Source of the DNA: Psychrobacter sp. DM4
GTDB taxonomy: Bacteria > Pseudomonadota > Gammaproteobacteria > Pseudomonadales > Moraxellaceae
Assembly (NCBI RefSeq): GCF_051307035.1
Contig: NZ_CP195536.1
Span: 1,770,001 to 1,802,000 of the forward strand
Length of the DNA stretch: 32,000 bases
Direction: 5' to 3'
Shown piece by piece: positions 4,544-21,409 of this stretch. Made by a program: the position numbers and the translations under genes. The notes under the pieces are model-generated. The model was given only the letters and a program-made list of their open reading frames with translations, had not been told where the DNA came from and ran no database searches. Position 1 is the stretch's first letter. Every line of letters starts with the position of its first letter.

Positions 4544-6613
4544 ATGCAGCTAAATGTTTGTAGTAGACTTATCAAAAATTTGCGTCGTCCAGCTTATATT
4601 GTAGGGATAACCTTACTTACGTTATCTGCACACTCAGCATTTGCTGCCGTTAGCTGCCCTGCTGGTTTCACCTCTGATGAATTCTCAAACTCAGATTATA
4701 CCAATCTTGCTCCGGTGGTCTCACCACCTACTCCACAAAGCAACCAAAATGTTATCGGTATTAAAAGCGAGAGCTACTTGATAGCTTCCAATAGTTTAAC
4801 CACTAGCGGCACTTTAGATACTGGGGGAATAAATAGATATCAATCGGATACTACTGGAGGTGTGCAAGTTTTTCGTTTCTACCAAGACTTTGCCGATAAA
4901 ACGAGTACACGAACCGCGTCTTATACCTTTAGTAATAAATTTTCCAATCAGCCTCAGGCGCTCACTAATGTTGGTATTAGTATTTACGACATAGACACAA
5001 GCTACGTAGGGACAGACTTTGCTGGTAATAGGTATTTCGAGTTTTTTGACCAAGCGACCGTCACAGGGGTTACTAGTGCAGGGACGACGATTAGTCCAGT
5101 CTTACAATCTAAAGGCGCTGGAATTACCAGCATAGCACCTTATCGGCAAACAAATTTGACTAGCAGTGTCAGTTGCGGCGGCTTGAACGACAATTGCAGA
5201 GTTTCATTGTCATTCAACCAGCCTGTTGTAAAAGTAGACATTACTTACGGTAATAATACTGACTTAAATTATTTTGATCAAAGTGATGATGACGGCGATG
5301 GTAATCAATTCAATGATCCTGGCGATCAGCTAGTTGATATAAGATTTGATGGCTATTGTTATCAGCCGCAGCCGCGATTGATTTACACAAAAGCATTGTC
5401 TGACCCTCGCATTATAGATACAGATGAGTTTAGGATTCAGATAACAGATAACGCAAATAATACCTCAGTGACCAGTGGTATCAGTACGACGACGACAGCA
5501 GGAGAAGGTAATACTGTTACTACTGGTACAGGTACAACAGGGACTTTTAGAGTTGATCCTACCAAGACATATACTTTGACCGAGATTGCCTCAGGCACCA
5601 CAAACCTGTCAAATTATAATGCTACTTATACTTGTAGAAGATCAGATGGTACAACAGTGACAACGCTAAATCCAAATAGCCTAAAACTTACTTATGGGGA
5701 CAATTGGACTTGTACCATTACTAATAGTCGCAGTTTTATCTTTTCAGGTATCGTCTTTAACGACAACGGCGGTATTACAGCGAGTAGTGCTGATAGACAG
5801 AACATCTCTTCAACCTTCATCGGTAATGGCAGCTACTTTAACGGAACCTTTGATAGTGCTACTGAATCTGGCATATACGACAACAACTTACAAGTTCGAT
5901 TGACCAACTGTAATGGCACCAACATCGCAACCACCTCGCCCAATCCGCAGACAGTATCGAATGATAATGCCACTAGAGGTCGATATAACTTTATCGTACC
6001 AGCGAGTGCGCTTGCCAATAGCACTAGAGTCTGCGTGGTAGAGAATGAACCAAGCGCTTGGGACTTTACAATAGATACCACACCAGATACGCGCGAGGTC
6101 ACATTGGTTGCCAATGTCTTTGAATACAAAACCGAGAGAAATAGTGCAGGCGCAATCACGCGCAATTTAGATTTTGGTGAAGTTCGGGCTGCAAATGCAG
6201 CGTTAGTACTCATAAAATCTCAATACGTTCACGACTGTAACGCTAGTCTTAATTATCAAAATGTCGGTAGTAGTGAGAATCCAACACAAGGTTTTAGTAC
6301 CAACCCAATTAGTAATATTGAATCTGGAAGGTGTATCGCTTACCGTATTCAAGCGTTTAACCGAGGTCATATAGCGCTACAGCAAGTACGAATAAGTGAT
6401 GAGTTGCAATCTGACCCTGTCGCTTCAGTGTTCAAGCGTCCAGCGCCTCTGTTTATTCCAACCTCAGTCGCCAGTCCAACGGTTGCATACGATACCAATG
6501 GCACTATTCAATCTAATCTGTTTAGTTTGACTGCAACATCAACTACGGCAAGTGTACCGCCTTCAGCGAGGTTGTTTTTCAATACTAAATTTGGTACGAC
6601 TCAATCAAACTGA
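4544..6613 (+). CDS. Secreted multi-domain Ig-like surface protein A1 (putative tip adhesin-like; paralogue of A2)
   Basis: 689-aa ORF with AAGGA 6 nt upstream. Signal peptide ends ...LSAHSAFA|AVSC. Domains by eye: an N-terminal domain bracketed by Cys38 and Cys272; a SpaA/prealbumin-like domain (YTLTE ... NWTCTITN); an SdrD-B-like domain starting FIFSGIVFNDNGGIT; and a C-terminal DUF11-like domain (ALVLIKSQYVHDC...GRCIAYRIQAFNRG...RISDEL). Composition is Thr/Asn/Ser-rich. Confidence 0.85.
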   Translation: MQLNVCSRLIKNLRRPAYIVGITLLTLSAHSAFAAVSCPAGFTSDEFSNSDYTNLAPVVSPPTPQSNQNVIGIKSESYLIASNSLTTSGTLDTGGINRYQSDTTGGVQVFRFYQDFADKTSTRTASYTFSNKFSNQPQALTNVGISIYDIDTSYVGTDFAGNRYFEFFDQATVTGVTSAGTTISPVLQSKGAGITSIAPYRQTNLTSSVSCGGLNDNCRVSLSFNQPVVKVDITYGNNTDLNYFDQSDDDGDGNQFNDPGDQLVDIRFDGYCYQPQPRLIYTKALSDPRIIDTDEFRIQITDNANNTSVTSGISTTTTAGEGNTVTTGTGTTGTFRVDPTKTYTLTEIASGTTNLSNYNATYTCRRSDGTTVTTLNPNSLKLTYGDNWTCTITNSRSFIFSGIVFNDNGGITASSADRQNISSTFIGNGSYFNGTFDSATESGIYDNNLQVRLTNCNGTNIATTSPNPQTVSNDNATRGRYNFIVPASALANSTRVCVVENEPSAWDFTIDTTPDTREVTLVANVFEYKTERNSAGAITRNLDFGEVRAANAALVLIKSQYVHDCNASLNYQNVGSSENPTQGFSTNPISNIESGRCIAYRIQAFNRGHIALQQVRISDELQSDPVASVFKRPAPLFIPTSVASPTVAYDTNGTIQSNLFSLTATSTTASVPPSARLFFNTKFGTTQSN

Positions 6614-6658
6614 TTGATGGCTGCCCTATCATAAGCAGCTTTTGAGATAGCGACATCG

Positions 6659-6697
6659 AAACAGACACATATATCAATAAGAGTGTCTGTTTTGTTC
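6659..6697 (+). terminator. Rho-independent terminator after A1
   Basis: AAACAGACAC (6659-6668) pairs perfectly with GTGTCTGTTT (6683-6692) and runs into TTTTGTT. Confidence 0.6.
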
Positions 6698-6709
6698 TGT
6701 GTGCATACT

Positions 6710-6781
6710 CTTGCATTTCATCCTGATATAACTACCTCTCATACTTTATTGTTAGGCTTTACTTGCGTCTTTGTATAAGAT
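6710..6781 (+). promoter_or_regulatory. Putative A2 promoter with two 21-bp-phased repeat boxes
   Basis: The proximal box ACTACCTCTCA (6731-6741) matches the ACTACCATTCA box of the B2 promoter at 9/11 positions. The distal box CTTGCATTTCA (6710-6720) matches at 6/11 and lies exactly 21 bp upstream. TTTGTATAAGAT (6770-6781, -10-like TATAAG) starts 39 nt after the proximal box, the same geometry as at 9063-9134 and 12185-12256. Confidence 0.45.
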
Positions 6782-6858
6782 TAAACACTCAAAGTAATAT
6801 CATAATTTTGATTCTTTACTTAATAGCTAAAGAGCCAAAGATCATAAGGCGTAACGAT

Positions 6859-8913
6859 ATGCACAATATTCACATCTCTCTGTATACTCGTGTAGCCAAT
6901 ATGCCTACATATCGAGTACTCGTATCGCTTGCCTTTATGATAGGTTTTTTTGGTACTGAAGCTAACGCCAATTTCGAATCTACTGCGACCTCTACAGCTG
7001 CTGCTTGTCCCATAAATCATAAGATGTACTTTATTGGTGCCAACGCCAATGCTCCTGCGTCAACGCCAGACTTTCCCGTAGTGAGCTTACCTCTCAACTG
7101 GACAGCTGGAGACTCTTCGAGAAATTTTACTTTCGCAGAATCTTCAGGAAACAAAACCTTCAATATTAATTTCTCATCGATTGTGGAAAAAAACAATAGT
7201 CAAGGTGCTCCTCCTTTCTATGGGTCTATTAATGGCAGCACATCTTCTGCTATTAACTTGGTTCACGACTCTACATCGACTGTAAATAACCATATTTTAA
7301 ATATTAGTACCAATCGCTCAGTGAGTAAGGCAGGCTATGAAATACAAGATGTAGACTCCTTAACCTCTAATGTTATTATTGGGTATATTGGTTTCTTTCC
7401 AATTCGCGCAGATAGAACACCATATGCAGAACAGATAGACGTATCTGCCAACGGTGGTCGGTTGACATTTAATAGTTTGTTTCATGCTGCTAACAACCCT
7501 GCTCCTAATACCAGTATAGTGACCGCAATTGAAGGTCAGAACTGTTCTACTGGTGAGTGTGATATTGATGCTTCTTGGGGTTACAAAGCTGCAAATAGCG
7601 TCCTAGGATTGAGACATAATAATACGATTAATGAAACCCCTGCTCCACATGCTGTTGGATATTCTAATTTTTATTTTTGTTTAGCACCACCTAAAGTTCT
7701 TGTAAAAAAAGTACTAGCTGGTAACCGTGTCAATGATACTGATACTAATCGAGATCAGTTTGAGCTTAGTATTAACAGAGGAACAACGGTTGTCAATGCG
7801 GTTACCACGACAGGCTCAGGTTCAGCCGTCACGAACAACAACAATCGAAATGCTGTAAGCATAGCTGAAAACACAAGCTATACCATTACTGAACGCGTCA
7901 GAAATGGTACAACGCTTGGTGAGATTGCAAATTATAATGCTACTTATACCTGTACCAATGCGACCACAGGTAGTACCACTGTCATGCCCACTGCAAATAT
8001 GGTATTTAATGCGACTACAAAAACTCGTTCGTTTACGTTGGCTAGTACCAATTTTGGTGATGAGATAACTTGTACCATTACCAACACACCAATCGGCTAT
8101 ACTTTTTCGGGTACTGTATTTGATGATAATGGTGGTATTACAGATAGTGAAGCCAACGCTACTAACGCAGACATTGCTAGTAGCAGTAGCCCTTACGCGA
8201 ATAGACCCAATTATTTTAATGGGGTATTTAATACACCTCAAGAGCTCGGTATTGCTGGCAGTACGGTCAAATTAGTCAACTGTACGGCCCCTAGTACCGT
8301 TTATGCCACTCAAGCAGTATCAACAACGGGGACTTACCAGATAAATGCTTCTGCCGCTACGATAAATAGCAATTCTAATAATATCTGCCTAGTAGAAGAG
8401 CGCGCTGGTACTGATTACCCTATTCGTACCAACGCACCTACTAAGACGGTCAATATAGTCACCAATACCTTTGATTACCCTAATAATAACTTTGGTCGCG
8501 TGATCGCTGCAAACGTCGCCTTGGTGCTCAAAAAGTCTCAATACATCAATAACTGCCCTGCGACACTCAACTACGCTAGTATTGGAGATACCACCAGTCC
8601 ATCGACAGGGTTTAGCTCAGCCTTAGTTGAAAATATCGCACCTGGCAGATGTATCGCCTACAAGATTACAGCGACCAATCGCGCTAATGTCAATATTGAT
8701 AACTTTGTTATGAAAGATATATTACAAAACAAAGGGGTCAACAATGCCATCGTGACGTCAACAATTGCAGCTCCTGCCCCCGCTTCAACAGATTATACGG
8801 CCAACAGCCCTACTATTGGCCAAAATGGTACAATGGAGTCTAAATCCTTTACCTTAAACCCAAGAACCAAACGTGACTTCTATTTCAATACCAAGTACGG
8901 TACCAGTCAATAA
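6859..8913 (+). CDS. Secreted multi-domain Ig-like surface protein A2 (paralogue of A1)
   Basis: The ORF track gives 6763-8913. I prefer ATG 6859 (AAGG 9 nt upstream), with ATG 6901 (MPTYRVLVSLAFMIGFFGTEANA|NFEST) as an alternative. Architecture matches A1: an N-terminal domain from AAACPINH to NFYFCLAPP; a SpaA-like domain (KVLVKKVL...YTITE...EITCTITN); an SdrD-B-like domain (YTFSGTVFDDNGGIT); and a C-terminal DUF11-like domain (ALVLKKSQYINNC...GRCIAYKITATNRA...MKDIL). Confidence 0.85.
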   Translation: MHNIHISLYTRVANMPTYRVLVSLAFMIGFFGTEANANFESTATSTAAACPINHKMYFIGANANAPASTPDFPVVSLPLNWTAGDSSRNFTFAESSGNKTFNINFSSIVEKNNSQGAPPFYGSINGSTSSAINLVHDSTSTVNNHILNISTNRSVSKAGYEIQDVDSLTSNVIIGYIGFFPIRADRTPYAEQIDVSANGGRLTFNSLFHAANNPAPNTSIVTAIEGQNCSTGECDIDASWGYKAANSVLGLRHNNTINETPAPHAVGYSNFYFCLAPPKVLVKKVLAGNRVNDTDTNRDQFELSINRGTTVVNAVTTTGSGSAVTNNNNRNAVSIAENTSYTITERVRNGTTLGEIANYNATYTCTNATTGSTTVMPTANMVFNATTKTRSFTLASTNFGDEITCTITNTPIGYTFSGTVFDDNGGITDSEANATNADIASSSSPYANRPNYFNGVFNTPQELGIAGSTVKLVNCTAPSTVYATQAVSTTGTYQINASAATINSNSNNICLVEERAGTDYPIRTNAPTKTVNIVTNTFDYPNNNFGRVIAANVALVLKKSQYINNCPATLNYASIGDTTSPSTGFSSALVENIAPGRCIAYKITATNRANVNIDNFVMKDILQNKGVNNAIVTSTIAAPAPASTDYTANSPTIGQNGTMESKSFTLNPRTKRDFYFNTKYGTSQ

Positions 8914-8935
8914 TTTAACGTTTTAGACATCCAAA

Positions 8936-8972
8936 AACGCCTATTTAGTTATCCGACTAGATAGGCGTTTTT
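8936..8972 (+). terminator. Rho-independent terminator after A2
   Basis: AACGCCTAT (8936-8944) pairs with ATAGGCGTT (8961-8969) and is followed by a T-run to 8972. Confidence 0.7.
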
Positions 8973-9062
8973 GATTTCGGAAATTTCTTCATACATAGGT
9001 TTCTACCTAAAGCATAGTTTATCTACTTCTCGTCTTGATGAATATTTTCTAGTAATTATGTG

Positions 9063-9134
9063 ATTACCATTCAGTAACTTCAAACCGCCATCTATCACCT
9101 TTTTGATGACTTAATTTTTGCTATTTGTAATGAT
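9063..9134 (+). promoter_or_regulatory. Putative B1-C1 promoter with two 21-bp-phased repeat boxes
   Basis: ATTACCATTCA (9063-9073) matches ACTACCATTCA at 10/11, and ACCGCCATCTA (9084-9094) matches at 7/11. A -35-like ATGACT lies at 9106-9111. TTTGTAATGAT lies at 9124-9134 (TG-n-AATGAT, extended -10-like). By hand, the 31 nt from the -35 element to the -10 element align at 21/31 with 12226-12256. Confidence 0.5.
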
Positions 9135-9276
9135 GCAGGCATCAGAAATACCTCAGTATTTTCACAGACTTATCTCTAGATATTCGTTATTGAATCATAC
9201 TTCTAGTACGTCCCAAGCTATCCAGAATAGCGATATGCATGTGTCTGATCGACAACCCCTTACAAAGGATTTTATT

Positions 9277-9741
9277 ATGCAATATTTTAATCTTTTACGT
9301 ACCACTATATTTGTGGCAGTAGCTTTCACCGTATCGCTAGGCGCTGCTCATGCCGATGACGCTTTGAAGATGAATTTGAGCGCGAATAAAGTCATCAAAA
9401 ATGCTGAGGGCGGTATCTCTTATCTACCCGTGAGCACAGCACCAGCGGGCACTGTTATTCAGTATAAAGCGAACTATACCAATACCATAAGTAAAGACAT
9501 CAATAACGTTATGGTCACGCTACCTATCCCTGCCAACATGACGTTTACAGGTGATGCCTTGCCTGCTAGTGCTCAAGCAAGTATCGATGGCAAGAATTAC
9601 GCAGACATGCCTTTGATGCGCAAAGTCGATGGCAAGCTAGTCAAGATCCCATTATCTGAATACCGTACGCTACGCTGGAATATCAAATTACTACCTGCTA
9701 ACAAGTCTGCTGCTGTGGCGTTAAATACCAAAGTTAGCTGA
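9277..9741 (+). CDS. Small secreted single-domain DUF11-like protein B1 (154 aa)
   Basis: The ORF track gives 9118-9741. I place the start at ATG 9277 because AAAGGA lies 7 nt upstream and a clean signal peptide follows (MQYFNLLRTTIFVAVAFTVSLGAAHA|DDALKM). A single Ig-like domain is present (GTVIQYKANYTNT...VTLPIPANM). About 80% identical to B2 over the mature protein (103/128, hand count). Confidence 0.85.
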   Translation: MQYFNLLRTTIFVAVAFTVSLGAAHADDALKMNLSANKVIKNAEGGISYLPVSTAPAGTVIQYKANYTNTISKDINNVMVTLPIPANMTFTGDALPASAQASIDGKNYADMPLMRKVDGKLVKIPLSEYRTLRWNIKLLPANKSAAVALNTKVS

Positions 9742-9810
9742 TAAAAGCTCTACTATCATTTTCAACTTATATCACTAACTATTTATTTATTTATCGTCTT
9801 GGAGCATTTT

Positions 9811-11856: not shown

Positions 11857-11888
11857 AGAAATATCGTAGTAAGTATCAGTATCTAGCG

Positions 11889-11925
11889 CTCATAGGAACA
11901 TAAACGTGCCTATGAGTGTTTTTTT
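11889..11925 (+). terminator. Rho-independent terminator after C1
   Basis: CTCATAGG (11889-11896) pairs with CCTATGAG (11909-11916) and is followed by TGTTTTTTT. Confidence 0.75.
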
Positions 11926-12184
11926 GTGTATAATATTTGCAAGTTGATGTGTCAGCAAAAGCAGCTACGGATCGAAGATCCTAATTCTAACGCTAGTAAA
12001 TCGTCTTATTATTCAACATTATAGAAATATTAAGTCTTTAAGCGAATATGCGTAAGTAAAGTTATTTCTTATTTTCAGAGCATTTACCCTCATTACTTGT
12101 ATACGATAACTTGATTACATGTTTCACATAAATGATTGTTATTGTTAGTTTTTTACCAAAAAAATGCATGATAATCATATTCTT

Positions 12185-12256
12185 ACTACCATTCAACTAC
12201 TACTAACTACCATTCATCTTTTATGTAGTGACGGTATGTTACCTATTTGTGATAAT
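12185..12256 (+). promoter_or_regulatory. Putative B2-C2 promoter with two exact 21-bp-phased repeat boxes
   Basis: An exact 11-mer, ACTACCATTCA, occurs at 12185-12195 and 12206-12216. A -35-like GTGACG lies at 12228-12233. After a 17-bp spacer comes the extended -10 element TGTGATAAT (TG 12248-12249, GATAAT 12251-12256). Confidence 0.55.
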
Positions 12257-12373
12257 ACAACCATAAGAGTTGTATCTATCCTCAATTGTCCACATTTACT
12301 TATTGCCATTCGGTATGGCACAGATGTTGCACCAATGACCACGACTAGCAATGAATTGAACAAGGACAAAGAT

Positions 12374-12838
12374 ATGAACCTCTCTAACTTATTACGTACT
12401 ACCTTACTGGCAACTTTAGCAAGCCTTACTTTATCAGGTATTGCTCACGCTGATGACGCTCTAAAAATGGAGCTAACAGCAAATAAAGTCACTAAGGCTG
12501 TAGATGGCAAAGTAAGTTACGCACCTGTTAGTACCGCGCCAGCAGGTACCGTGATTCAGTACAAAGCGAACTATACCAATACAATTAATAAAGACATTAA
12601 CGATCTAGCCGTTATCTTACCTATCCCAACTAATATGGCATTCAACGGTGAAGCTAGTCCTGCTAGCGCACAGGCAAGCATCGATGGCAAGAACTACGCC
12701 GATATGCCACTGATGCGCAAGGTGGATGGCAAGATGATTAAGATTCCATATTCTGAATATCGTACATTACGTTGGAATATCAAATTACTACCCGCTAAGA
12801 AGTCTGCCGCTGTGGCACTGAACACCATTGTCGAATAG
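12374..12838 (+). CDS. Small secreted single-domain DUF11-like protein B2 (154 aa)
   Basis: The ORF track gives 12164-12838. I place the start at ATG 12374 with AAGGA 7 nt upstream. Signal peptide is MNLSNLLRTTLLATLASLTLSGIAHA|DDALKM. Same length as B1 and ~80% identical to it. Confidence 0.85.
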   Translation: MNLSNLLRTTLLATLASLTLSGIAHADDALKMELTANKVTKAVDGKVSYAPVSTAPAGTVIQYKANYTNTINKDINDLAVILPIPTNMAFNGEASPASAQASIDGKNYADMPLMRKVDGKMIKIPYSEYRTLRWNIKLLPAKKSAAVALNTIVE

Positions 12839-14904: not shown

Positions 14905-14923
14905 TTACTGATTTATGATCAAA

Positions 14924-14960
14924 GGAGTTTTCTTAATCAGATTAAGAAAACTCCCCTTTT
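14924..14960 (+). terminator. Strong hairpin with a weak T-tract between C2 and D (leaky terminator or attenuator)
   Basis: A perfect 14-bp stem, GGAGTTTTCTTAAT (14924-14937) with ATTAAGAAAACTCC (14941-14954), closes a 3-nt loop and is followed by CCTTTTA. Confidence 0.55.
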
Positions 14961-15009
14961 ACCCTTTATACATTAACTATGTTTTCTTTCATAAGTAGGA
15001 TTACCGAAT

Positions 15010-18000
15010 ATGCGTCAAGCTGTATTTTCGACTCGTAACCCTCGCTACCGTACAGGCGCGTTGACTGCGCTGACTACGTTGGCAGCGTCGATGCTACTTA
15101 TGCAAGCAAATATCGCTCATGCTGAAGATGGCAAGGGTGTCACCACGATCAACAACATCGCGCAAACCAGCTACACAGTTGGCAACAGCAATCAGACGAG
15201 CACGTCTAACCAAGTTAGCTTTAAATCATTAACCCTGCCTCAATATGAGGTTAGCCTTACTCAGCCTGATCTACAAACTATCAGTGCGGGTGATACTGTT
15301 CAGTGGGTCAATGTACTATCGAATAATGGCACCTTTGATGAAACCGTTACTCTAAGCTTTGACTATCCAAGTACGCTATCTAACTTTGCGGTATACCAAG
15401 ACCTTAACGAAAACGGCATCATCGATGATAGTGATAGACAAGTTATACTCGATGGTTTGAGCGCTCAAATTGCCTTGGGTCAAGCCGAAAGTATCCAGTT
15501 TATCGTTCAAGCTTTGAGTGATCGTAACGCTGCTAGTGGCGATACTGCTGAGATTAAGATTGGCGCTGTCGTTGTCGAAGATGATTCTGTAACAGCAGCA
15601 GCGACTGACCGCCTCATCATTGTCAAGCCGAGTATTGGCTTTACAGACGATAGGTTTGAAGGGCCAAAAGATACGACACAAATAAGCTCAAACGTATACG
15701 TAGAAGCCAATTACGCGCAGTGTAATGTGCAGCCCAACGCAAAAGACCAAGTATGGGTGACAATTACCTCAGAATTGACAGGTGACAAATACTCTCTAAA
15801 AGCAATAGAGACGGGCGACAACACGGGTAAATACCAAGTATCAGCGCCGACTCAAAATAATGCCAATAAGATCGATGACCAGATTATTCAGACTTTGAAA
15901 GGCGATTCGCTGACCGTCACACTTGATGCTTGTATTACACCTGATGGCGGTCGCGTTGATATCATAGACAATATCAGCAACAACATCGATATTGTTGATC
16001 AATCTGCGAGCCTACAAGTTCAAAAAGAAGGCGATATCAAATCAGCTGATCTTGGTGATTACGTCAACTACAGTATTAATGTCACTAATAATGGTGCTGC
16101 AACCGCGTTCGATGTTGAGCTAAAAGATGCGTTGCCACGTGGTTTCGACTATGTCAAAGGTAGCGCACGCGTCAACCAAGGGGCTAATAGCGCAGATAGC
16201 GATATTGATATCAGTCAAGCTCAAACTACTGAGTTCAAGGTAGACGGCAAGTATCAAGTTCTAAACCTAGGTAACTTAGCTGCGGGTGAGACGAAGAGTG
16301 TCACTTATCGCGTTCTTATTGGCGCGTCAGCATTAGGTGGCGACGGTATTAACCGTGCTACCGCAGTCGCTCGTGATGATAATGACAATGTATTTGCATC
16401 CATGGAATCACAGTGGTCTGTTGATGTTAGCCGTGGTCTTATGAATACTGATGGTATTATCATTGGTAAAGTCTATCACGACATCAACCGAGACGGCATC
16501 CAGCAAAAAGAAGACGGCGAGCTTGGTGTCGCAGGTGTACGCATCTACATGGAGAACGGTAACTTTATCGTGACCGATCCTGAAGGTAAGTATAACTTTT
16601 ATGGTATCAGTGCCAAGACCCACGTATTAAAAGTCGATCGTACAACTATTCCTGTCGCAAGTGAGCTCATCACTCAAAGTAACCGCAACGCTGGAGATGC
16701 TGGTAGCCGCTTCGTTGATCTCAAATACGGCGAGTTACATCGCGCTGATTTCGCTATTGTTGGCGGTATGAGCGATAGCACTGAAACTCTTAACGCTGAG
16801 CTGGTTGCCCGTAGCAAAAGTATTAGCGCTAAGAACGATACCTTAGAGCAAGCGGTTAAAAGCAAGCTCGATTTAGAGCCTATCTATGATCGCGACTATG
16901 ATGACAACGTCGATGCTACTGGCTGCAAATCTAACGATGTACTCGATAAAGGTATCAAATGCGACTCTGCTATTGTCAACGAATTAGCGATACCTAGCGC
17001 TAATCGTATCAATATGGATGTCAAAAAAGTCGTCCAACCTAAAGAAAAAGTACTAGAAGAGTACCTAAAAGAAGTTGATAACAATAATGTTGCGTTTATT
17101 AATCTAAGTAGCGATCAACAGCTTGCTTCATATAAGCAGATGGTCCAAGTACAAGCGCCATTAGGTTCTAACTTTACCCTGTATGTGAATGGCAAAGCCG
17201 TATCAGCAGAACAGATCGGTAAAACGGCTGAACAAGAAAAACAAAACGTTACCGCGTTTGATTATTACGCTGTTGATTTACAGCGTGGTCGTAATACGCT
17301 CCGCGGCGTTGCCACTGATATCAATGGCAAGACGATTTCTGAGCAGTCCATCAATGTGACTACGCCTGATAGCTTGCAGGCGATCAACTACCGTACTCAG
17401 GATGGCTTAGTAGAAGCTGATGGCCTGAGCGAATATCAGATCGTCGTTAGTCTAAAAGATCGTGACAATCGTCCTTATGTTGCCTCAACACCGATCACTA
17501 TTGATACCAATATTGGTCGCATAAACTTACCTGATGGCAGTAAGGATAAAGCTGGTACGCAAGTGATGGTCAATGGTGGCGAGATACTAATTCCTGTCAT
17601 TGCACCAAGCGTACCTGGTAAAGGTCAGCTCGTTATCGACACTGGCAGCAGCAAACAAGTTATCGATTTACAGTTTACTCCTAAGCTGCGTCCGCTGATT
17701 GCGGTTGGTATCGTAGAAGGTGCAATATCACTCAAAGACTTCGATGGCGGCAGCATCACTGATGCTCAGGGCGCTTTTGAGCAAGAGCTAAATGAGATTG
17801 CAGGCGGTGACGATTACTCAGCGACTGGCCGTGCGGCGATGTTCCTCAAAGGTAAAGTTCGCGGTGATTATCTACTGACGCTCGCTTATGATAGCGACAA
17901 AAAAGGCGAGCGCTTGTTTCGTGATATCGAGCCTGGCGAGTACTACCCTGTCTATGGTGACTCATCGGCTAAAGGTTTTGACGCTCAATCAACGAGCAAA

Positions 18001-20313
18001 CTCTATGTGCGCCTAGATAAAGGTCGCTCATTCGCTATGTACGGTGATCTAAAAACTCAAGTCGATAACGATGATGGTATTAAGCTGGGTCAATACAATC
18101 GTACACTTACTGGTCTAAAAGCTCAGTATGAAGACACCAATACTCGTATCACTACGTTCCTTGCCGAAACCAGTTCATCACAGCGTGTGAATGAGACTCG
18201 TGGTCTTGGTATATCAGGCCCTTATCCTCTAGCTGAAGATTTCGACGCCGTATTAGAGAATTCTGAAATTGTTGAAGTCATCACTCGTGATGCCAATAAT
18301 CCTGGTCTCATTATACGCCGTGAAACGCTAAGTCGTTTCGCTGATTATGAGGTTGACCCTTTAAGCCGCAGTTTGTTCCTAAAAGCGCCTATTGCCAGTC
18401 AAGATCTAGATGGTAACCCTATCTACATCCGCGTGACAGTAGAAGTCGATGAGGGTGGCGAAGATTACTTTGTTGGCGGTATCGCAGCCAAGCAACAATT
18501 AAATAACAAGGTTTCTATTGGTGGTAGTTACGTCAATAGCGACGATCCACTCAATAAAGAAGAGCTTGCGAGCATTAACAGTGTTATCAAATTCAATGAC
18601 AAGCTAAAAATAGTCGCTGAATACGCGATGAGTAAAGCAGAAAACCCTAACTATCAAGCTAGCAATCAGATCAATACCCAAGAGCTAGATATACAAGATG
18701 CTGATGGTGATGCTCTGCGTATTGAGCTAAATTACGACGACAAGAAAAATACTCGTGCAAAAGCCTACTATAATGATGCTGACGAAGGTTTTGTCACTGG
18801 TGCATCCATTTTAACTGCTGGACGTACTGAATCTGGTGTTGAGATCAAACACCTTATCAATGATAAGAACACAGCGCTCAAATTTGAAGGCGTACGTACC
18901 AAAGACAATACGACTGATGCAACTCGTCAAGGTGTCGAAGCCAGTATCGAGCAGCGCTTGAGTCAGAACGTCGTTGGCGAGCTTGGTGTCCGTTATTATA
19001 AGCAAGATGCTACCGCTGCCTCACGCAACACTCAAGAAGCCACAGATGTTATTGATATCACTGATGATACGCTATTTGAAGACGATATTATCAATCAGTC
19101 AGCACTCAGTAGTGTGAGCGATGCTGACAAAGATATCGAAGGTACTACCGCACGCGCGCGTATTACCGCACGCCTGCCTAAGCTTAATAATAGCTTAGTG
19201 TTTGCAGAATACGAGCAAGATATTGAGAACAGCTCGCGTAACGCAACCTCCGTTGGTGGTGAGACGCCACTTGGCAATCTTGGTCGTCTATATGCTCGTC
19301 ATGACTTAATCAATAGTTTGTCAGGCAGTTATGGTCTCGATGATACCGATGAGCGTCAACGTACCGTCATCGGGTTCGATGCCAACTATATGAAAGACGG
19401 TAAAGTCTATAGCGAATACCGTATGCGTGATGCCATTAGTGCTCGTGAAGCAGAGGCCGCTATCGGTCTTAAGAACAAATGGTATGTGCAAGAAGGTCTG
19501 ACTCTCAATACCTTGTTTGAGCGCGTTGAGTCACTTGAAGGTGAAGAAAACAATACGGCGACCGCAGCGGGCATCGGTGTTGAATATTTAGCACAAGAGA
19601 ATTACAAAGCTTCAGGTCGTTTCGAGAAACGCTGGGGCGAGACTAGCGACACGTTGCTCGGCAGTGCTGGTATTGCTTATCGTTATACCGATGAAATTAC
19701 GTTACTTGCAAAAGACACTTACTCTCGTATCGATTATGACGATGGCGATCGTACTGTCAACCGCTTCCAGTTGGGCGCGGCGTATCGAGATCTAAATAGT
19801 AATCAGCTCGATATGCTAGCCAAGCTTGAGTATCGTTTAGATGACAATAATACGGGCGATGATACTTATCGCAGAGATACTACGATTTGGTCGTGGAATG
19901 GTAACTATCATCCGACTCGTCCTTTGACTTTATCTGGTCGTTACGCTGGTAAGTATACAGAATACGAAGCAGATAGCATCTCAAGTGATAACACAGCACA
20001 CGCCGTATACGGTCGTGGACTTTATGATCTTAGTGAGCGTTGGGACGTCGGTCTGCAAGCCGGTACTTACTGGAATGATCAAGCGGACGATCTGTCTTAT
20101 ATGCTAGGCGCTGAGGTCGGTTATAGTCCTATGACTAATCTATGGTTGTCTCTAGGGTATAACTTTATGGGCTTTGAAGATGATGATATTGCCTATGACG
20201 ATAGTACTCAACAGGGCGCATACTTTAGACTACGCTTCAAGTTTGATGAAGAATTATTCAAGCGTGATGATCCAAGCAAAAATAAACGTTTAGCAAGTAA
20301 CTCTACTTTATAA
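15010..20313 (+). CDS. Giant outer-membrane protein D: N-terminal Ig-like/DUF11/SdrD-B/Big_1-like region plus a very large predicted C-terminal beta-barrel
   Basis: 1767-aa ORF with AGGA upstream. Signal peptide ends ...MQANIAHA|EDGK. There is an N-terminal NIAQTSY...SNQVSFK hairpin. A canonical DUF11 motif is present (YVNYSINVTNNGAATAFDVELKDALPRGFDYV), as is an SdrD-B-like motif (GKVYHDINRDGIQQKEDGELGVAGVRIYMENGNFIVTDPEGKYNF) and a Big_1-like motif (VEADGLSEYQIVVSLKDRDNRPY). From about aa 880 (nt ~17650) the sequence shows alternating amphipathic strand/turn patterns. It ends ...LSLGYNFMGFEDDD...GAYFRLRFKF plus a 22-aa tail. Confidence 0.8.
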   Translation: MRQAVFSTRNPRYRTGALTALTTLAASMLLMQANIAHAEDGKGVTTINNIAQTSYTVGNSNQTSTSNQVSFKSLTLPQYEVSLTQPDLQTISAGDTVQWVNVLSNNGTFDETVTLSFDYPSTLSNFAVYQDLNENGIIDDSDRQVILDGLSAQIALGQAESIQFIVQALSDRNAASGDTAEIKIGAVVVEDDSVTAAATDRLIIVKPSIGFTDDRFEGPKDTTQISSNVYVEANYAQCNVQPNAKDQVWVTITSELTGDKYSLKAIETGDNTGKYQVSAPTQNNANKIDDQIIQTLKGDSLTVTLDACITPDGGRVDIIDNISNNIDIVDQSASLQVQKEGDIKSADLGDYVNYSINVTNNGAATAFDVELKDALPRGFDYVKGSARVNQGANSADSDIDISQAQTTEFKVDGKYQVLNLGNLAAGETKSVTYRVLIGASALGGDGINRATAVARDDNDNVFASMESQWSVDVSRGLMNTDGIIIGKVYHDINRDGIQQKEDGELGVAGVRIYMENGNFIVTDPEGKYNFYGISAKTHVLKVDRTTIPVASELITQSNRNAGDAGSRFVDLKYGELHRADFAIVGGMSDSTETLNAELVARSKSISAKNDTLEQAVKSKLDLEPIYDRDYDDNVDATGCKSNDVLDKGIKCDSAIVNELAIPSANRINMDVKKVVQPKEKVLEEYLKEVDNNNVAFINLSSDQQLASYKQMVQVQAPLGSNFTLYVNGKAVSAEQIGKTAEQEKQNVTAFDYYAVDLQRGRNTLRGVATDINGKTISEQSINVTTPDSLQAINYRTQDGLVEADGLSEYQIVVSLKDRDNRPYVASTPITIDTNIGRINLPDGSKDKAGTQVMVNGGEILIPVIAPSVPGKGQLVIDTGSSKQVIDLQFTPKLRPLIAVGIVEGAISLKDFDGGSITDAQGAFEQELNEIAGGDDYSATGRAAMFLKGKVRGDYLLTLAYDSDKKGERLFRDIEPGEYYPVYGDSSAKGFDAQSTSKLYVRLDKGRSFAMYGDLKTQVDNDDGIKLGQYNRTLTGLKAQYEDTNTRITTFLAETSSSQRVNETRGLGISGPYPLAEDFDAVLENSEIVEVITRDANNPGLIIRRETLSRFADYEVDPLSRSLFLKAPIASQDLDGNPIYIRVTVEVDEGGEDYFVGGIAAKQQLNNKVSIGGSYVNSDDPLNKEELASINSVIKFNDKLKIVAEYAMSKAENPNYQASNQINTQELDIQDADGDALRIELNYDDKKNTRAKAYYNDADEGFVTGASILTAGRTESGVEIKHLINDKNTALKFEGVRTKDNTTDATRQGVEASIEQRLSQNVVGELGVRYYKQDATAASRNTQEATDVIDITDDTLFEDDIINQSALSSVSDADKDIEGTTARARITARLPKLNNSLVFAEYEQDIENSSRNATSVGGETPLGNLGRLYARHDLINSLSGSYGLDDTDERQRTVIGFDANYMKDGKVYSEYRMRDAISAREAEAAIGLKNKWYVQEGLTLNTLFERVESLEGEENNTATAAGIGVEYLAQENYKASGRFEKRWGETSDTLLGSAGIAYRYTDEITLLAKDTYSRIDYDDGDRTVNRFQLGAAYRDLNSNQLDMLAKLEYRLDDNNTGDDTYRRDTTIWSWNGNYHPTRPLTLSGRYAGKYTEYEADSISSDNTAHAVYGRGLYDLSERWDVGLQAGTYWNDQADDLSYMLGAEVGYSPMTNLWLSLGYNFMGFEDDDIAYDDSTQQGAYFRLRFKFDEELFKRDDPSKNKRLASNSTL

Positions 20314-20449
20314 TAAGTAGAGTTATCTTATTTTAGGCCTTTGTTGATGTAGGCTTCAAACAATACAAGCTCTACTAATTCTAATGTATTGTAAGTAATC
20401 AAACAGTCGCGACTAACCCTTATTATTTTAATACAAGGTTTGTAATACG

Positions 20450-21409
20450 ATGAATGCTTCAGACCTCACGACCAAAATACTGACCTGCCAGCGTCGCCTG
20501 CCAGCCGCTCTATCAGCTATCCTACTGGCACTCATAACCTCTTCTGCGTCGGCAGATTTGGATGTTGATAATACAACTCGCATTACACCTGTCTCTGTAC
20601 AACCTATTGCTATTCAACCTAGCGTTGTTAAATCTAGTCCTATTCAATCGACCATTACTGACCTGACTATCATTGCTCCAGCTATGAATATCAGCACAAA
20701 TGCTATAACTCGCTGTGAAGATAATCGTCAGAATAAAACTTCTAAATACCAAACCAAGCAGCAGCGTGATATCGCTTGCATGATCGAGCAATTACAACCG
20801 TATCAGCAAGCAAATGTGACCGCCCGTCAGCAGTATCTAGCTTTTAAGGCACAAGCATGGCTTAACTACGCCAATAATAAATACAGTATGAATAGCCGTG
20901 CCTCTATTGCTGATTATGCTTTCGAGTCTGGCAAAGAGATTTTTTTGGCACTTAAAAACAATGATGAGCAAAACATTAATCTTGTAAGAGACATTCCGAC
21001 AACCTCTGATATGATGCGCCCTGACCTTTGGGCGATGCTAAGTGCACTTAAAACGGCGGGCGGTATCAATAGTGCGCCGCGTGAGCTGGCTTTTAGCGAA
21101 GTTTCTCTAATTTGGGCAGCAGCAGATCATTGTGCTAGAGGCTGGCGCGAGTCGAGTCCTCGTTTTAGAATGGGCGAGCGCTGGTTAGAACAAACCCGTG
21201 AAGCCTATGTCAATGCCAATAGCTCTACTGATAGCGCTGCGCTTATTGAGCAGATCAACAGCTACTATAAACAATATGAGCAACTAGACCCTAGAAATAA
21301 TATCTGTAATGGTCAAGTCATGCCTGTGGTCAACCAAACCCAGGCTAGTGCTACGTCTGTTTTTATTCCAATGCCTATGCCAACGGCTACTTATACCCTT
21401 TCCAACTAG
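20450..21409 (+). CDS. Secreted, predominantly helical protein E of unknown function
   Basis: 319-aa ORF with AAGG upstream. The N-terminus is ...CQRRLPAALSAILLALITSSASA|DLDV: a signal peptide containing a twin-arginine pair whose context is not a clean Tat motif. There are four Cys in the mature part and no recognisable catalytic motif. A bidirectional terminator follows the gene. Confidence 0.7.
   Translation: MNASDLTTKILTCQRRLPAALSAILLALITSSASADLDVDNTTRITPVSVQPIAIQPSVVKSSPIQSTITDLTIIAPAMNISTNAITRCEDNRQNKTSKYQTKQQRDIACMIEQLQPYQQANVTARQQYLAFKAQAWLNYANNKYSMNSRASIADYAFESGKEIFLALKNNDEQNINLVRDIPTTSDMMRPDLWAMLSALKTAGGINSAPRELAFSEVSLIWAAADHCARGWRESSPRFRMGERWLEQTREAYVNANSSTDSAALIEQINSYYKQYEQLDPRNNICNGQVMPVVNQTQASATSVFIPMPMPTATYTLSN

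Follow-up and report, generated by a model that had tools for sequence, protein, structure and literature searches.

The window analysed here is a 32,000-nt stretch of the Psychrobacter sp. DM4 chromosome, within which the locus of interest occupies positions 4544-21409. Its eight co-oriented ORFs (A1, A2, B1, C1, B2, C2, D and E) have aceEF on one side and a TetR gene on the other, as a first-pass annotation of this DNA had described (Table 1). The internal starts that we picked for B1, C1 and B2 agree with RefSeq. Seven of the eight products, including D, were looked up in RefSeq and carry the name 'hypothetical protein [Psychrobacter sp. DM4]'; no entry was found there for the form of A2 that starts at 6901.

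Table 1. Genes, domains and flanking genes of the locus; positions are those of the window
Feature	Position	Strand	Description
aceF	1-1251	-	Flank
aceE	1289-4153	-	Flank
A1	4544-6613	+	689 aa; signal peptide, divergent N-terminal region, SpaA_3 at aa 282-395
A1 acceptor domain	6200-6610	+	aa ~553-689; Lys558 and Asp619 at isopeptide positions (mapped via 9IFR)
A2	6901-8913	+	670 aa from ATG 6901; mechanical ORF start 6763; A1 paralogue
A2 acceptor domain			aa ~535-670; Lys545 and Asp606
B1	9277-9741	+	ORF start also 9118; 154-aa precursor, 128 aa mature; one DUF11-like domain
C1	9811-11856	+	ORF start also 9799; 681 aa; signal peptide, donor hairpin, DUF11-like domains, C-terminal acceptor
C1 donor hairpin	9892-10020	+	aa 28-70, '..VDIKNIATANYDIAGVKQTEVKSNEVIVRVSE'; Asn43 at isopeptide Asn position
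C1 acceptor domain	11473-11853	+	aa 555-681; Lys559, Asp615, conserved Cys pair; last residues '...TMKFSVKIKTNR'
B2	12374-12838	+	ORF start also 12164; 154 aa; B1 paralogue
C2	12883-14904	+	673 aa; C1 paralogue; Pfam DUF11 at aa 244-357
C2 donor hairpin	12964-13089	+	aa 28-69; Asn42
C2 acceptor domain	14527-14901	+	aa ~549-673; Lys558 and Asp610
D	15010-20313	+	1767 aa; signal peptide, donor hairpin, Ig-like region, C-terminal barrel module
D donor hairpin	15124-15231	+	aa 39-74, 'EDGKGVTTINNIAQTSYTVGNSNQTSTSNQVSFKSL'; Asn49 at isopeptide Asn position
D C-terminal module	17587-20310	+	aa 860-1767; predicted ~36-40-strand barrel at aa ~936-1746
E	20450-21409	+	319 aa, secreted; conserved helical N-terminal domain
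TetR gene	21530-22222	-	Flank

Much else in that annotation holds. Signal peptides with an AxA-type site, reported for every product, were found by eye in 8 of 8. The absence of lipobox, LPXTG and RTX signals was borne out by a motif scan of the eight products, which also lacked CxxCH, and Pfam searches likewise gave no match to chaperone (PapD-like included), usher, sortase, POTRA, secretin or ATPase families in the locus proteins. Of the adhesin-type domains that it named, SpaA (SpaA_3 in A1 and A2) and DUF11 (in C2 and D) were matched by Pfam; SdrD_B in D scored 28.8 bits, just under the 29.7-bit cutoff. The B proteins and C1 gave weak DUF11-type matches only, and E had no Pfam domain match. 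The duplicated B-C pair is evident from identities of 80% (B1/B2) and 32% (C1/C2, full length); the B1/B2 DNA is ~72-80% identical, with many synonymous changes. A1 and A2 do diverge N-terminally as claimed, their 36% identity being confined to the C-terminal two-thirds: A2 has a signal peptide and an N-terminal ~215 aa unrelated to A1, then SpaA_3.

A feature newly recognized here is that, on profile comparison, the last domain of A, B and C alike is a DUF11/CLIPPER domain that lacks its final two strands (the acceptor), and that in C and D the signal peptide is followed by a conserved segment similar to those two strands (the donor hairpin). We built an acceptor profile from the last 140 aa of C (49 sequences) and a B profile from 62 sequences. 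Against the complete DUF11 domain of D, the C acceptor profile aligned at template positions 11-116 of 146 (hhalign probability 95.9%, E 6e-9), reaching to within one residue of the C terminus of C; the B profile aligned at positions 16-114, ending on the last residue of B. Taken alone, acceptors match Pfam DUF11 up to profile positions 85-91 of 114 and the B1 domain ends at ~84-87; the C1 and C2 acceptors of the present window are too divergent for a Pfam DUF11 match. A1 likewise has a truncated DUF11-type acceptor domain at its C terminus, terminating right after the strand '...ARLFFNTKFG', and has no donor hairpin. The donor motif 'AG..I.N.A.A.Y....SN.V...V' lies directly behind the signal peptide in 119 C and D N-termini from several phyla, and the donor profile lands on template positions 118-143, the very segment missing from the acceptors (a weak hit alone, E 0.07).

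Two natural C-D fusions (loci L063 and L068) place these parts side by side: a full mature C is followed by ~3 residues and then the mature N-terminus of D. Their junctions match Pfam DUF11 at 10-114 and 11-113 of 114, with the D-derived hairpin completing the profile end. Artificial chimeras gave a clear gain in one of three genomes: in Acinetobacter (L017), adding the cognate hairpin lifted the DUF11 match from 31.6 to 35.0 bits and moved its end from 85 to 105, and the reversed-hairpin control scored 28.6 bits with no extension of the match; L049 was marginal and L062 showed no extension. An AlphaFold2 model of a C1-acceptor/D-donor chimera was of low confidence (pLDDT 55, hairpin ~47-51). 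All C proteins (49 of 49) terminate in an acceptor, as do 40 more ORFs; where the N-terminus of an accessory protein is intact, it shows a signal peptide but lacks a donor. The end types are acceptor only in A, donor plus acceptor in C, and donor plus barrel in D; the present window holds six acceptors (A1, A2, B1, B2, C1, C2) and three donors.

The split also runs through a catalytic site. The CLIPPER domain of PDB 9IFR has an experimentally defined isopeptide triad, Lys715/Asp748/Asn806 (PMC12617251), whose positions we transferred by aligning the D DUF11 domain to 9IFR (when we indexed the 9IFR chain, the catalytic Asp came out one residue away from its published number). The Lys falls in the acceptor motif 'L.K.Q', the Asp in the acceptor motif 'SD..P' and the Asn in the donor motif 'I.N.A'. 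Lys and Asp are therefore carried by the A and C acceptors and Asn by the C and D donors; across 27 genome-paired sequences neither Asp nor Asn varies, and conservation of Lys is 90% or higher. The complete DUF11 domain of D (aa 335-460) holds all three, as Lys339/Asp373/Asn448. The Asp position is Leu, Ile or Gly in the B sequences inspected (Leu82 in B1).

In the Ig-like region of D, the DUF11 domain is followed by SdrD_B-like and then weak Big_1/Invasin_D3-like domains; Big_1/Invasin_D3-type domains occur in 16-17 of 30 D-family members. The C-terminal ~900 aa are nearly all beta-strand in prediction and are predicted to form an outer-membrane barrel of ~36-40 strands, with a conserved ~85-residue insert at module residues ~206-290 and a last strand '..YFRLRFKF' followed by a ~20-residue tail. 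The AlphaFold2 model (pLDDT 73, pTM 0.65), a structure prediction that the first-pass annotation had put forward as a check, together with the strand prediction and Foldseek supports its suggestion of an unusually large barrel. Foldseek returned only large outer-membrane barrels (SlpA, MtrB, SprA, LptD and ushers) at TM ~0.2, the best being SlpA, a connector of outer membrane and peptidoglycan. The barrel is covered by no Pfam or NCBIfam model, no close solved relative was found, and D has no detectable homology to the usher, autotransporter, TpsB, secretin or LptD families; one of 30 D-family members gave a weak Autotransporter match (E 0.026). Since the barrel would be even-stranded, the N-terminal region of D should start on the periplasmic side.

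Relatives of the D C-terminal module form 3242 clusters at 50% identity and are present in at least 598 species genomes. Co-conservation had been set beforehand as a test of the locus: upstream of D we found C in 60 of 60 loci and B in 57 of 60, and downstream of it E in 44 of 74 (not detected in the other 30), all co-oriented. The conserved core is B-C-D(-E), and this cassette, usually with E, ranges from Moraxellaceae to Geobacteraceae, Burkholderiales and Nitrospirota; acceptor-terminated accessory (A-type) proteins adjoin it in many lineages, not in this genus alone. Fourteen of 18 aligned E orthologues have an OmpA-type peptidoglycan-binding C-terminal domain, and so does E in most genera; the present E lacks it. 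For its helical N-terminal domain we found no known relative. We found no description of the locus in the searchable literature, and public sources give generic names only; the cassette is widespread, unnamed and matches no pilus or secretion pathway found in the databases and papers searched, as expected from the earlier statement that it fits no nameable assembly pathway.

We propose, with slightly more belief than doubt, that the products of the locus form a modular, outer-membrane-anchored fibre whose subunits join head to tail by trans-complementation of split DUF11/CLIPPER (CnaA-like Ig) domains. Each protein would complete the last domain of its neighbour with the two strands that this domain lacks: the D donor would insert into a C acceptor, and the C donor into the acceptor of A or of another C, giving the order A (distal, variable, the presumed binding end), C, D. 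With Lys and Asp supplied by the acceptor and Asn by the donor, each joint may lock itself covalently through a spontaneous intermolecular isopeptide bond, with no need of a sortase. There is precedent in archaeal threads, where donor-strand complementation and spontaneous intersubunit isopeptide bonds occur together (PMC9715654), and the same pairing is proposed for BsaA (bioRxiv 10.1101/2024.11.04.621531). The D barrel would hold the chain in the outer membrane and may be wide enough for folded, cross-linked Ig domains to reach the surface. E would contact the periplasmic side of D, its OmpA domain tying the complex to peptidoglycan in most genera; the Psychrobacter E would have lost this domain. 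The interpretation in the first-pass annotation is thereby supported in part. Its tip, shaft and anchor logic stands for A, C and D, for which the end types provide an independent basis; B, however, is no shaft subunit. It is acceptor-only, lacks the catalytic Asp and shows much stronger conservation than C, features in keeping with a cap or chaperone: as a minimal acceptor domain it would bind donor hairpins reversibly and non-covalently, whether in the role of a periplasmic chaperone that is afterwards displaced or in that of a distal cap.

A possible objection is that the chain is not a fixed A-C-D series but a homopolymeric pilus, with many C subunits head to tail on D, A as the tip adhesin and B as a periplasmic chaperone or length-terminating cap. 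C alone has both donor and acceptor, as polymerization requires; the window has two B-C pairs; and B, acceptor-only and Asp-less, could be the kind of cap subunit that donor-strand-complemented filaments need (PMC9715654). However, the D donor is cell-proximal and fused to the barrel, so new C subunits would have to join at the distal, extracellular tip, and how they would be delivered there is not obvious. The natural C-D fusions moreover show that in some lineages one C for each D makes a functional system, and the large size of C (650-1000 aa) sets it apart from typical major pilins. We regard such a pilus as unlikely, while taking it seriously. It is distinctly unlikely, in our judgement, that the proteins act independently, with D a giant, self-contained autotransporter-like adhesin and translocon, A and C its cargo with stable truncated domains, and the hairpin a sorting signal read by B or by the D barrel (compare the C-terminal domain signal of T9SS). 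D does join an N-terminal Ig-like region to a C-terminal barrel in autotransporter style, the barrel equals in size the T9SS translocon SprA (a Foldseek match), the hairpin-to-DUF11 alignment is weak and only one of three chimera tests was clearly positive. Yet a sorting signal leaves unexplained why three protein classes end at the identical truncated DUF11 position, why fusions link the end of C and the start of D into a full-length DUF11 match, and why Lys and Asp are conserved on one chain and Asn on another.

The surface location that the modular fibre implies can also be questioned, in that B-C-D-E might be a tether or scaffold inside the envelope, connecting outer membrane to peptidoglycan in the manner of SlpA or OmpA, and no surface adhesin. 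SlpA is the best Foldseek match, E orthologues bind peptidoglycan through OmpA domains, the barrel N-terminus begins in the periplasm, and B is strongly conserved, as an internal component would be. We nevertheless think a tether very unlikely: the Ig rods of C and D (1500-2000 aa) are estimated to be far longer than the periplasm is wide, A and C sequences diverge fast, as exposed proteins usually do, the N-terminal regions of accessory A-type proteins are highly variable, and Psychrobacter retains the system without the OmpA domain. The SpaA, SdrD_B, DUF11 and Big_1 families are, besides, known from extracellular adhesins (PMC12617251). That the locus is a divergent member of the chaperone-usher, type V secretion, Acinetobacter fil operon or T9SS systems seems to us extremely improbable. 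Such a relationship could be read from the ushers PapC and FimD among the Foldseek matches (TM 0.23), the weak Autotransporter match, and the name 'FilF' for a putative pilus assembly protein, with the pilus adhesin RrgA as closest modelling template. But the structural matches are all generic big barrels, the public names are generic, and the fil operon has a different gene set (products of 289, 279 (C39 peptidase), 398, 556, 430 and 641 aa). Usher, PapD-like chaperone, POTRA/ShlB and secretin matches are absent from all locus proteins and among the 25 of 29 matched families listed for 30 D-family members.

The proposed fibre resembles chaperone-usher pili (type 1, P, Csu) in having incomplete Ig-like subunits completed by a neighbour's N-terminal segment, a small periplasmic Ig-like protein that would cover the interaction surface until assembly, a large outer-membrane barrel at the base and no ATPase in the locus. 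It differs in that PapD-like chaperone and usher homologues are missing; the donor is apparently a two-strand hairpin entering a CnaA-like DUF11 domain, not a single strand in a pilin groove; B would present an acceptor groove instead of a donor strand; and the base subunit is fused to a barrel of ~36-40 rather than 24 strands, with a covalent lock possible. With sortase pili (SpaA, RrgB, Spy0128) it shares SpaA-type, CnaA/CnaB-like and SdrD_B domains, isopeptide chemistry and, as proposed, covalent tip-shaft-base links. However, there is no sortase or LPXTG in the locus, the bond would arise within a reconstituted domain, from the Lys/Asp/Asn triad of that domain and not by transpeptidation, and the host is diderm, with an outer-membrane barrel as anchor instead of peptidoglycan. 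SpyTag/SpyCatcher and SnoopTag/SnoopCatcher are engineered split isopeptide domains derived from CnaB-type domains, in which a large part with the catalytic residue and a short strand-bearing part dock, refold and ligate spontaneously; the SnoopCatcher bond is Lys-Asn. Unlike these laboratory constructs, the split of the CnaA-like DUF11 domain proposed here would be natural.

Autotransporters (type Va) and inverse autotransporters (type Ve: intimin, invasin) have 12-strand barrels, and their passengers cross unfolded. They too combine an Ig-rich passenger and a barrel in one polypeptide, share the Big_1/Invasin_D3-type domains and can have a peptidoglycan-binding element beside the barrel (LysM in intimin); the D barrel is ~3 times larger, without a Pfam Autotransporter or intimin barrel match in D, and further, separately encoded subunits would be attached. 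A trimeric autotransporter with a separate OmpA-domain partner is described in PMC12523085. SprA/Sov of T9SS (36 strands) is likewise a giant single-chain barrel whose width admits folded proteins, and its cargo bears an Ig-like terminal element; SprA matches D at TM only ~0.2 with no sequence similarity, the eight locus products match no other known secretion-machinery family, the host phyla differ, and the terminal elements here look like structural halves of one domain. By strand count alone, the D model is comparable to families 002 and 003 of Solan et al. (PNAS 2021), which the accessible part of that source describes, giving neither function nor gene context, as uncharacterized single chains predicted from contact maps to be 38- and 40-strand outer-membrane barrels, larger than any solved barrel (PMC8346858).

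Archaeal threads (Saci_0406) and the 'exchange and lock' fibres of Clostridium perfringens BsaA come close in mechanism, with head-to-tail donor-strand complementation, apparently spontaneous intersubunit isopeptide bonds and the need of a cap subunit. However, the folds are unrelated (type-I-pilin-like and TasA-like), the subunits are homopolymeric, the bonds are Asn57 to the N-terminal amine and an N-E-K triad, the hosts lack an outer membrane and no barrel anchor appears in the accessible parts of their descriptions. Domain and host family are both shared by B9T28_05395 of Acinetobacter silvestris (PDB 9IFR), a Moraxellaceae surface protein having DUF11/CLIPPER domains with a Lys-Asp-Asn triad and OmpA-type anchoring (PMC12617251). 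It consists of one chain with intact domains, intramolecular bonds and its own OmpA-like anchor (PMC12617251), whereas in the present locus the terminal domains appear to be split between chains and are accompanied by a predicted giant barrel and a separate OmpA-domain partner.

The eight co-oriented genes between aceEF and a TetR gene (table below) are arranged as the first-pass annotation had described. We corrected the starts of three genes from the mechanical ORF calls; RefSeq has the same starts. The mechanical A2 ORF begins with TTG at 6763, and the ATG at 6901 yields a plausible signal peptide; RefSeq probably uses another start (e.g. the ATG at 6859), since the exact sequence from 6901 is absent from the protein collection. 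The seven products found there (all but A2) are each labeled 'hypothetical protein' in RefSeq, and D matches a Psychrobacter sp. DM4 protein at 100% identity. The signal peptide with an AxA-type site claimed for every product was seen by eye in 8/8, and a motif scan of the eight agreed that there is no lipobox, LPXTG or RTX signal, and found no haem motif. The proposed duplication of B-C modules, and the pairing of A1 with A2 with divergent N-termini, is reflected in identities of 80% for B1/B2, 32% for C1/C2 and 36% for A1/A2, the last over the C-terminal two-thirds only.

Genes of the locus and its flanks, with predicted architecture class, isopeptide triad residues (from alignment) and N-terminal donor motif
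Feature	Position	Strand	Remark	Class	Acceptor Lys, Asp	Donor Asn	Donor motif
aceF	1-1251	minus	left flank				
aceE	1289-4153	minus	left flank				
A1	4544-6613	+	ORF	A-type: variable region + acceptor	K558, D619		
A2	6901-8913	+	ORF, start chosen here (ATG at 6901)	A-type: variable region + acceptor	K545, D606		
B1	9277-9741	+	ORF, start as in RefSeq	B: minimal acceptor without Asp			
C1	9811-11856	+	ORF, start as in RefSeq	C: donor + acceptor	K559, D615	N43	VDIKNIATANYDIAGVKQTEVKSNEVIVRVSE
B2	12374-12838	+	ORF, start as in RefSeq	B: minimal acceptor without Asp			
C2	12883-14904	+	ORF	C: donor + acceptor	K558, D610	N42	FVVKNIATATYNVTGNDTQQTAESNEVTITVNE
D	15010-20313	+	ORF	D: donor + barrel		N49	TTINNIAQTSYTVGNSNQTSTSNQVSFKSL
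E	20450-21409	+	ORF				
TetR gene	21530-22222	minus	right flank				

Promoter and terminator scans did no better than on shuffled sequence and are therefore uninformative on operon structure. A hairpin with a 12-bp stem and a T-rich tail lies at 20297-20326, overlapping the D stop codon (20311-20313) and the D/E gap. The ~200 nt upstream of B1 and of B2 (9050-9276 and 12150-12373) share patches of sequence, such as 'ACCATTCA' and 'CTATTTGT(A/G)AT(G/A)AT(G/A)CA', and give long spurious 5' ORF extensions; the similarity could be a duplicated regulatory leader or a mere remnant of the B-C duplication. G+C content is ~0.40-0.46 along the locus, with a minimum of 0.36 over the aceE-A1 intergenic region and A1 start (4001-5000), versus 0.46-0.49 in aceEF; the right-hand genes (21-26 kb) are also low (~0.41-0.44), so G+C is no clear sign of horizontal acquisition. 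Farther right are genes for a 217-aa glycine-zipper protein (25107-25763, minus) and a glycerol-kinase-like FGGY protein (25949-27520, minus), and an unrelated three-gene cluster (27703-31521, +) encoding a TolC-like outer-membrane efflux protein (OEP), a BrkB-family membrane protein and an HlyD-type membrane-fusion protein.

Pfam and NCBIfam upheld the SpaA, SdrD_B and DUF11 assignments of the first pass: SpaA_3 was found in A1 and A2, DUF11 (PF01345, cutoff 24.6 bits) in C2 (32.3 bits) and D (51.3 bits), and SdrD_B in D slightly below threshold. Orthologous B, C and A-like proteins from other genomes also match DUF11. PDB sequence searches with A1, B1, C2, D and E gave nothing significant except a weak DUF11 match of D to the CLIPPER/DUF11 crystal structure 9IFR.

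The system is real, widespread and uncharacterised. An exhaustive search with the C-terminal module of D (residues 860-1767) matched 3242 clusters at the 50% identity level, 1332 of them with E below 1e-30, and a scan of one genome per species placed the module in at least 598 species. Most full-length relatives are proteins of ~1000-4000 aa in which the best match ends at or near the C-terminus. Databases call the relatives nothing more specific than 'DUF11 / SdrD B-like domain-containing', 'large repetitive protein' or 'hypothetical'. The module is not covered by any Pfam model, and a 1049-aa member lacks Pfam domains altogether. The best 80 loci include many from Acinetobacter, with others from Moraxella, Alkanindiges, Fluviicoccus, Geobacteraceae and other Desulfuromonadales, Burkholderiales, Thermodesulfovibrionales/Nitrospirota and one Lysobacter MAG. 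Of the 60 loci with enough flank, 57 have a B gene (~160-200 aa) upstream of and co-oriented with D, and all 60 have a C gene (~650-1030 aa) between B and D (51 by single-sequence phmmer, nine by inspection); E follows D in 44/74. Co-conservation of the genes thus extends far outside the genus, and this recurrence around D defines a conserved core B-C-D(-E), of which our locus holds a duplicated B-C pair. Single-sequence phmmer missed some C and A homologs, which were recovered by inspection and with an HMM of the C-terminal (acceptor) domain described below.

E in other genera is longer, with an OmpA/Pal-type peptidoglycan-binding C-terminus (Pfam E down to 2e-20; PDB profile ~1e-27). The OmpA domain (PF00691) occurs in 4/4 scanned E orthologs and 14/18 aligned ones, and is missing from E of our locus (319 aa) and from E of three other loci (L001, L002 and L010); it is therefore a family feature that was lost here. 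Orthologs for comparison with our E are L008:12618-13865, L049:12631-13800 and L039:8682-9977, the last from a Moraxella MAG that retains the domain. The TetR gene begins only ~120 bp past E, leaving no space for a split E gene. The conserved helical N-terminal domain of E has no known match.

The first-pass view that D ends in an unusually large barrel is supported by structure prediction. An AlphaFold2 model of the module (30-sequence alignment; pLDDT 73, pTM 0.65) is nearly all beta-strand, with ~36-40 long strands over ~810 residues by DSSP. All PDB structures matched by Foldseek were large outer-membrane barrels (SlpA with 30 strands, MtrB, SprA with 36 strands, LptD, TonB-dependent receptors and ushers), each with a TM-score of ~0.2, so that the fold class is clear and a close relative is lacking. 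The C-terminal half of D is thus predicted to be a very large, unannotated outer-membrane barrel. A 2021 survey (PMC8346858) predicts an uncharacterised superfamily of 38- and 40-strand barrels (families 002/003), and D may be a member. Predicted barrels of ~38-40 strands would be the largest class of single-chain outer-membrane barrel.

Within the barrel strands lies a highly conserved insert of ~85 residues (18199-18456; module residues ~206-290, D aa ~1065-1150), with the family consensus 'SGPY.LS...G..NSEKVEI.TRDRNQP..IL....L.RF.DYEFEPFSGRLLFK.PVPS'. It is predicted to form short strands and a helix, no family match was found for it, and it might serve to plug or gate the barrel. Another ~20 residues of D ('DEELFKRDDPSKNKRLASNSTL'; 20248-20310, aa 1747-1767) follow the last predicted strand '..YFRLRFKF', so the usual C-terminal aromatic beta-signal is not at its extreme end; the motif 'LRLRFKFDE.LF' is kept throughout the D family.

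The termini of the subunits suggest how they may join. In every lineage the mature N-termini of C and D share a strongly conserved ~45-residue motif, 'AP.AGT.I.N.A.A.Y ... (T)SN.V.T.V.QV.SFTL', while the remainder of C evolves fast. We call this motif the donor hairpin, since it looks like the two final strands of a DUF11 domain. DUF11-like domains that end shortly before those two strands form the C-termini of C, A1 and A2 and all of B; these we call acceptors. In profile-profile alignments to the complete internal DUF11 domain of D (aa 325-470), the last domain of C matches from template position 11 to 116 (probability 95.9%, E 6e-9) and ends within one residue of the C-terminus, and B covers 16-114 with the same statistics and ends on its last residue. 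The donor hairpin takes up at 118-143, although its short length makes this alignment weak by itself (E 0.07). By Pfam, acceptor domains alone end at DUF11 profile positions 84-91 of 114. An AlphaFold2 model of an acceptor plus donor chimera, from a window-only alignment, had low confidence (pLDDT 55).

The acceptor-domain HMM found acceptors at the extreme C-terminus of 49/49 C proteins and of 40 further ORFs. Some of the 40 are C genes missed before, and the others, whose genes precede B or follow E, encode large accessory proteins of ~460-2570 aa; they come from Acinetobacter, Alkanindiges, Moraxella, Fluviicoccus, Geobacteraceae, Thermodesulfovibrionales and several broadly labeled MAGs. 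All accessory proteins with an intact N-terminus have a signal peptide and none has a donor hairpin. In a betaproteobacterial MAG, the product of a gene downstream of D (L054:12655-16404) begins '..AAACSASETLQTFSFPSWTAGTTGPT', which resembles the mature A2 start (6970-7100), '..AAACPINHKMYF...SLPLNWTAGDSS'; conservation between classes is thus possible for at least one of the A-type N-terminal domains.

In 9IFR an intramolecular Lys715-Asn806 isopeptide bond is catalyzed by Asp748 (PMC12617251). The profile of paired acceptors and donors did not match 9IFR among PDB profiles, so we mapped the triad through the internal DUF11 domain of D, whose alignment to 9IFR predicts that it retains the full triad (K339/D373/N448). 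The Lys, at 'QVQK', corresponds to acceptor 'L.(V/T)K.Q'; the Asp, at 'ELKDALP' (index count one residue off the published number), to acceptor '.SD..P'; and the Asn, at 'GINRATA', to donor 'I.N.A.A.Y'. The triad of the terminal domains thus appears to be divided between chains. Among 49 C orthologs, conservation is at least 95% for both the acceptor Lys and the acceptor Asp, as it is for the donor Asn among 119 N-termini of C and D; in the 27 sequences that pair acceptor and donor by genome, Asp and Asn never vary and Lys is at least 90% conserved. At the Asp position, B has Leu82 in our locus, and the family members inspected have Leu, Ile or Gly there. These residues led us to abandon the possibility of an isopeptide bond between B itself and the hairpin.

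Natural fusions, which are strong evidence at the level of sequence, connect the two halves. In three Burkholderiales MAG loci (L063:3239-12601, L068:3251-12703 and L069:3608-13057) C and D are one protein of ~3100 aa, with the end of C joined to the start of D and B immediately upstream. Residues 20-901 of the L063 fusion are a complete mature C to its last residue, and 905 onward is D from its mature N-terminus, with the junction '...LYFCVKIDP-VAAGSTVSNQASS...SNTVSATV'. Pfam DUF11 runs across this junction at positions 10-114 of 114, and across that of L068 at 11-113; the profile end is supplied by the D-derived hairpin in both cases, with scores of 21-22 bits, just below the 24.6-bit cutoff. 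The L069 junction is rearranged (C-like to ~aa 765, with an internal hairpin-like motif at ~aa 1037). We also scored DUF11 against chimeras from three genomes in which the cognate D hairpin was appended to the C acceptor, and here the evidence for complementation is mixed. The Acinetobacter chimera (L017) rose from 31.6 to 35.0 bits and its match end moved from 85 to 105, versus 28.6 bits and no extension for a reversed-hairpin control; the Geobacteraceae chimera (L049) gave a marginal extension only, and the Burkholderiales chimera (L062) none.

Over their N-terminal ~450 aa, D and C are paralogs (15124-16400 compared with C1 and C2; likewise in L062, L054 and L060), and aa 46-485 of the L062 C protein are 35% identical to the D-derived part of the L063 fusion. 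From this paralogy, D looks like a C-type protein that gained a barrel, or C like a D that has lost its own.

We propose that the last domain of C would be completed by the donor hairpin of D, as the fusions imply, and that the donor of C would do the same for an A-type protein or for a second C. The chain order would be A, C, D, with the variable A farthest out. The joint may ligate spontaneously, because a reconstituted CnaA-like fold would place Lys and Asp opposite the incoming Asn. Self-ligating joints have a precedent in the engineered Snoop and Spy systems. Others are archaeal threads (PMC9715654) and the 'exchange and lock' proposed for BsaA (bioRxiv 10.1101/2024.11.04.621531). B could bind the hairpins reversibly, as a chaperone or cap; the count of six acceptors versus three donors in our locus favors such a transient role. 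B is under strong purifying selection, because B1 and B2 are 80% identical as proteins while their DNA is ~72-80% identical and differs at many synonymous sites; gene conversion as the source of their similarity was rejected on that same divergence. The 12-strand barrel of autotransporters is too narrow for folded domains; the very wide barrel of D could be the route by which folded, possibly cross-linked Ig domains cross the outer membrane. E would tie the base to peptidoglycan, a role apparently given up in this genus.

We give this split-domain fibre model slightly better than even odds. We are more tentative, at somewhat under an even chance, about the full proposal: a new, widespread class of Gram-negative surface fibre whose subunits are ordered and joined by a naturally split, spontaneously ligating isopeptide domain, a two-strand N-terminal Asn hairpin docking in the truncated C-terminal Lys/Asp DUF11 domain of the next subunit, with the Asp-less B as exchangeable chaperone, and in which a ~38-40-strand barrel, tethered to peptidoglycan by an OmpA partner, both anchors the chain and exports it already folded and cross-linked. 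The overall first-pass reading, of an undescribed surface-fibre or adhesin system, was largely right; it could name no assembly pathway, and a concrete mechanism can now be proposed. If the model holds, this would be a new diderm surface-fibre assembly pathway that does without a chaperone-usher pair, sortase, type IV machinery, T9SS or ATPase. It would bear on the question, in the isopeptide field, of how far isopeptide-stabilised pili reach beyond Gram-positive bacteria, and would supply a role for a very large unannotated family, which spans thousands of clusters, hundreds of species and several phyla, as well as for a predicted class of barrels that exceeds all solved structures in size. 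The A, C and D variants would also be natural, orthogonal self-ligating acceptor/donor pairs which, with B as non-covalent competitor, could serve as protein-ligation tools. The literature searched, mostly outside subscription journals so that prior work is possible, gave no description of the cassette.

A possible objection is that the locus belongs to a pathway already known. As the first pass had it, Pfam and NCBIfam place no chaperone, usher, sortase, POTRA, secretin or ATPase family in the eight proteins, and for each pathway membership fails on a missing defining feature. The chaperone-usher pathway is similar in logic, with its incomplete Ig folds, N-terminal donors and outer-membrane barrel, but the PapD-like chaperone of two Ig domains (PF00345/PF02753) is absent from the eight proteins by both collections, B being a single DUF11-like domain of ~128 aa. 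The usher of FimD/PapC type combines a plugged 24-strand barrel with domains at its N- and C-termini; PF00577 is absent from D, Foldseek gives D a TM-score of only 0.23 to PapC and FimD, and no Usher, secretin or POTRA family is among the 25 listed of 29 families matched by 30 D-family members. For sortase-built pili, CnaA/CnaB-type isopeptide domains are present (SpaA_3, DUF11 and the SdrD_B-like match), but the locus has neither an LPXTG motif nor a sortase family. DUF11 in a secreted, elongated protein, as in DUF11/CLIPPER fibrillar adhesins, is present (C2 and D).

Among type V systems, Va has a C-terminal 12-strand beta-domain with an alpha-helical linker, whereas the D model has about three times as many strands; PF03797 did not match D and matched one of 30 relatives weakly (E 0.026). 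In type Ve (intimin/invasin) an N-terminal barrel, accompanied by a periplasmic LysM domain, precedes a C-terminal Big_1 passenger, whereas D reverses this order, with the Ig region before the barrel. Big_1 or Invasin_D3, Ig domains of the intimin/invasin type, occur in 16-17 of 30 D-family members and match D weakly (E ~0.04), and no LysM domain was found. For type Vb, which pairs a POTRA-containing TpsB transporter with TPS-domain cargo, the POTRA, ShlB and TPS families are all absent from the locus proteins and from the 25 listed of 29 families in the 30 relatives. We also rejected the Acinetobacter fil operon (FilA-FilF) and FilF as a name for the locus; its six genes, including a C39 peptidase, a 556-aa outer-membrane transporter and the 641-aa FilF (Supplementary Table S3, PMC4751259), do not match ours in size or type. 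T11SS cargo had no bearing on the locus.

The resemblance to Gram-positive pilins lies in the parts of the locus, and the D polypeptide is like an oversized autotransporter. In chaperone-usher pili an incomplete Ig fold is completed by the N-terminal extension of a neighbor, and we infer an analogous design here, in a different fold. The proposed joint would be a natural 'click' of the kind known from SpyCatcher and SnoopCatcher.
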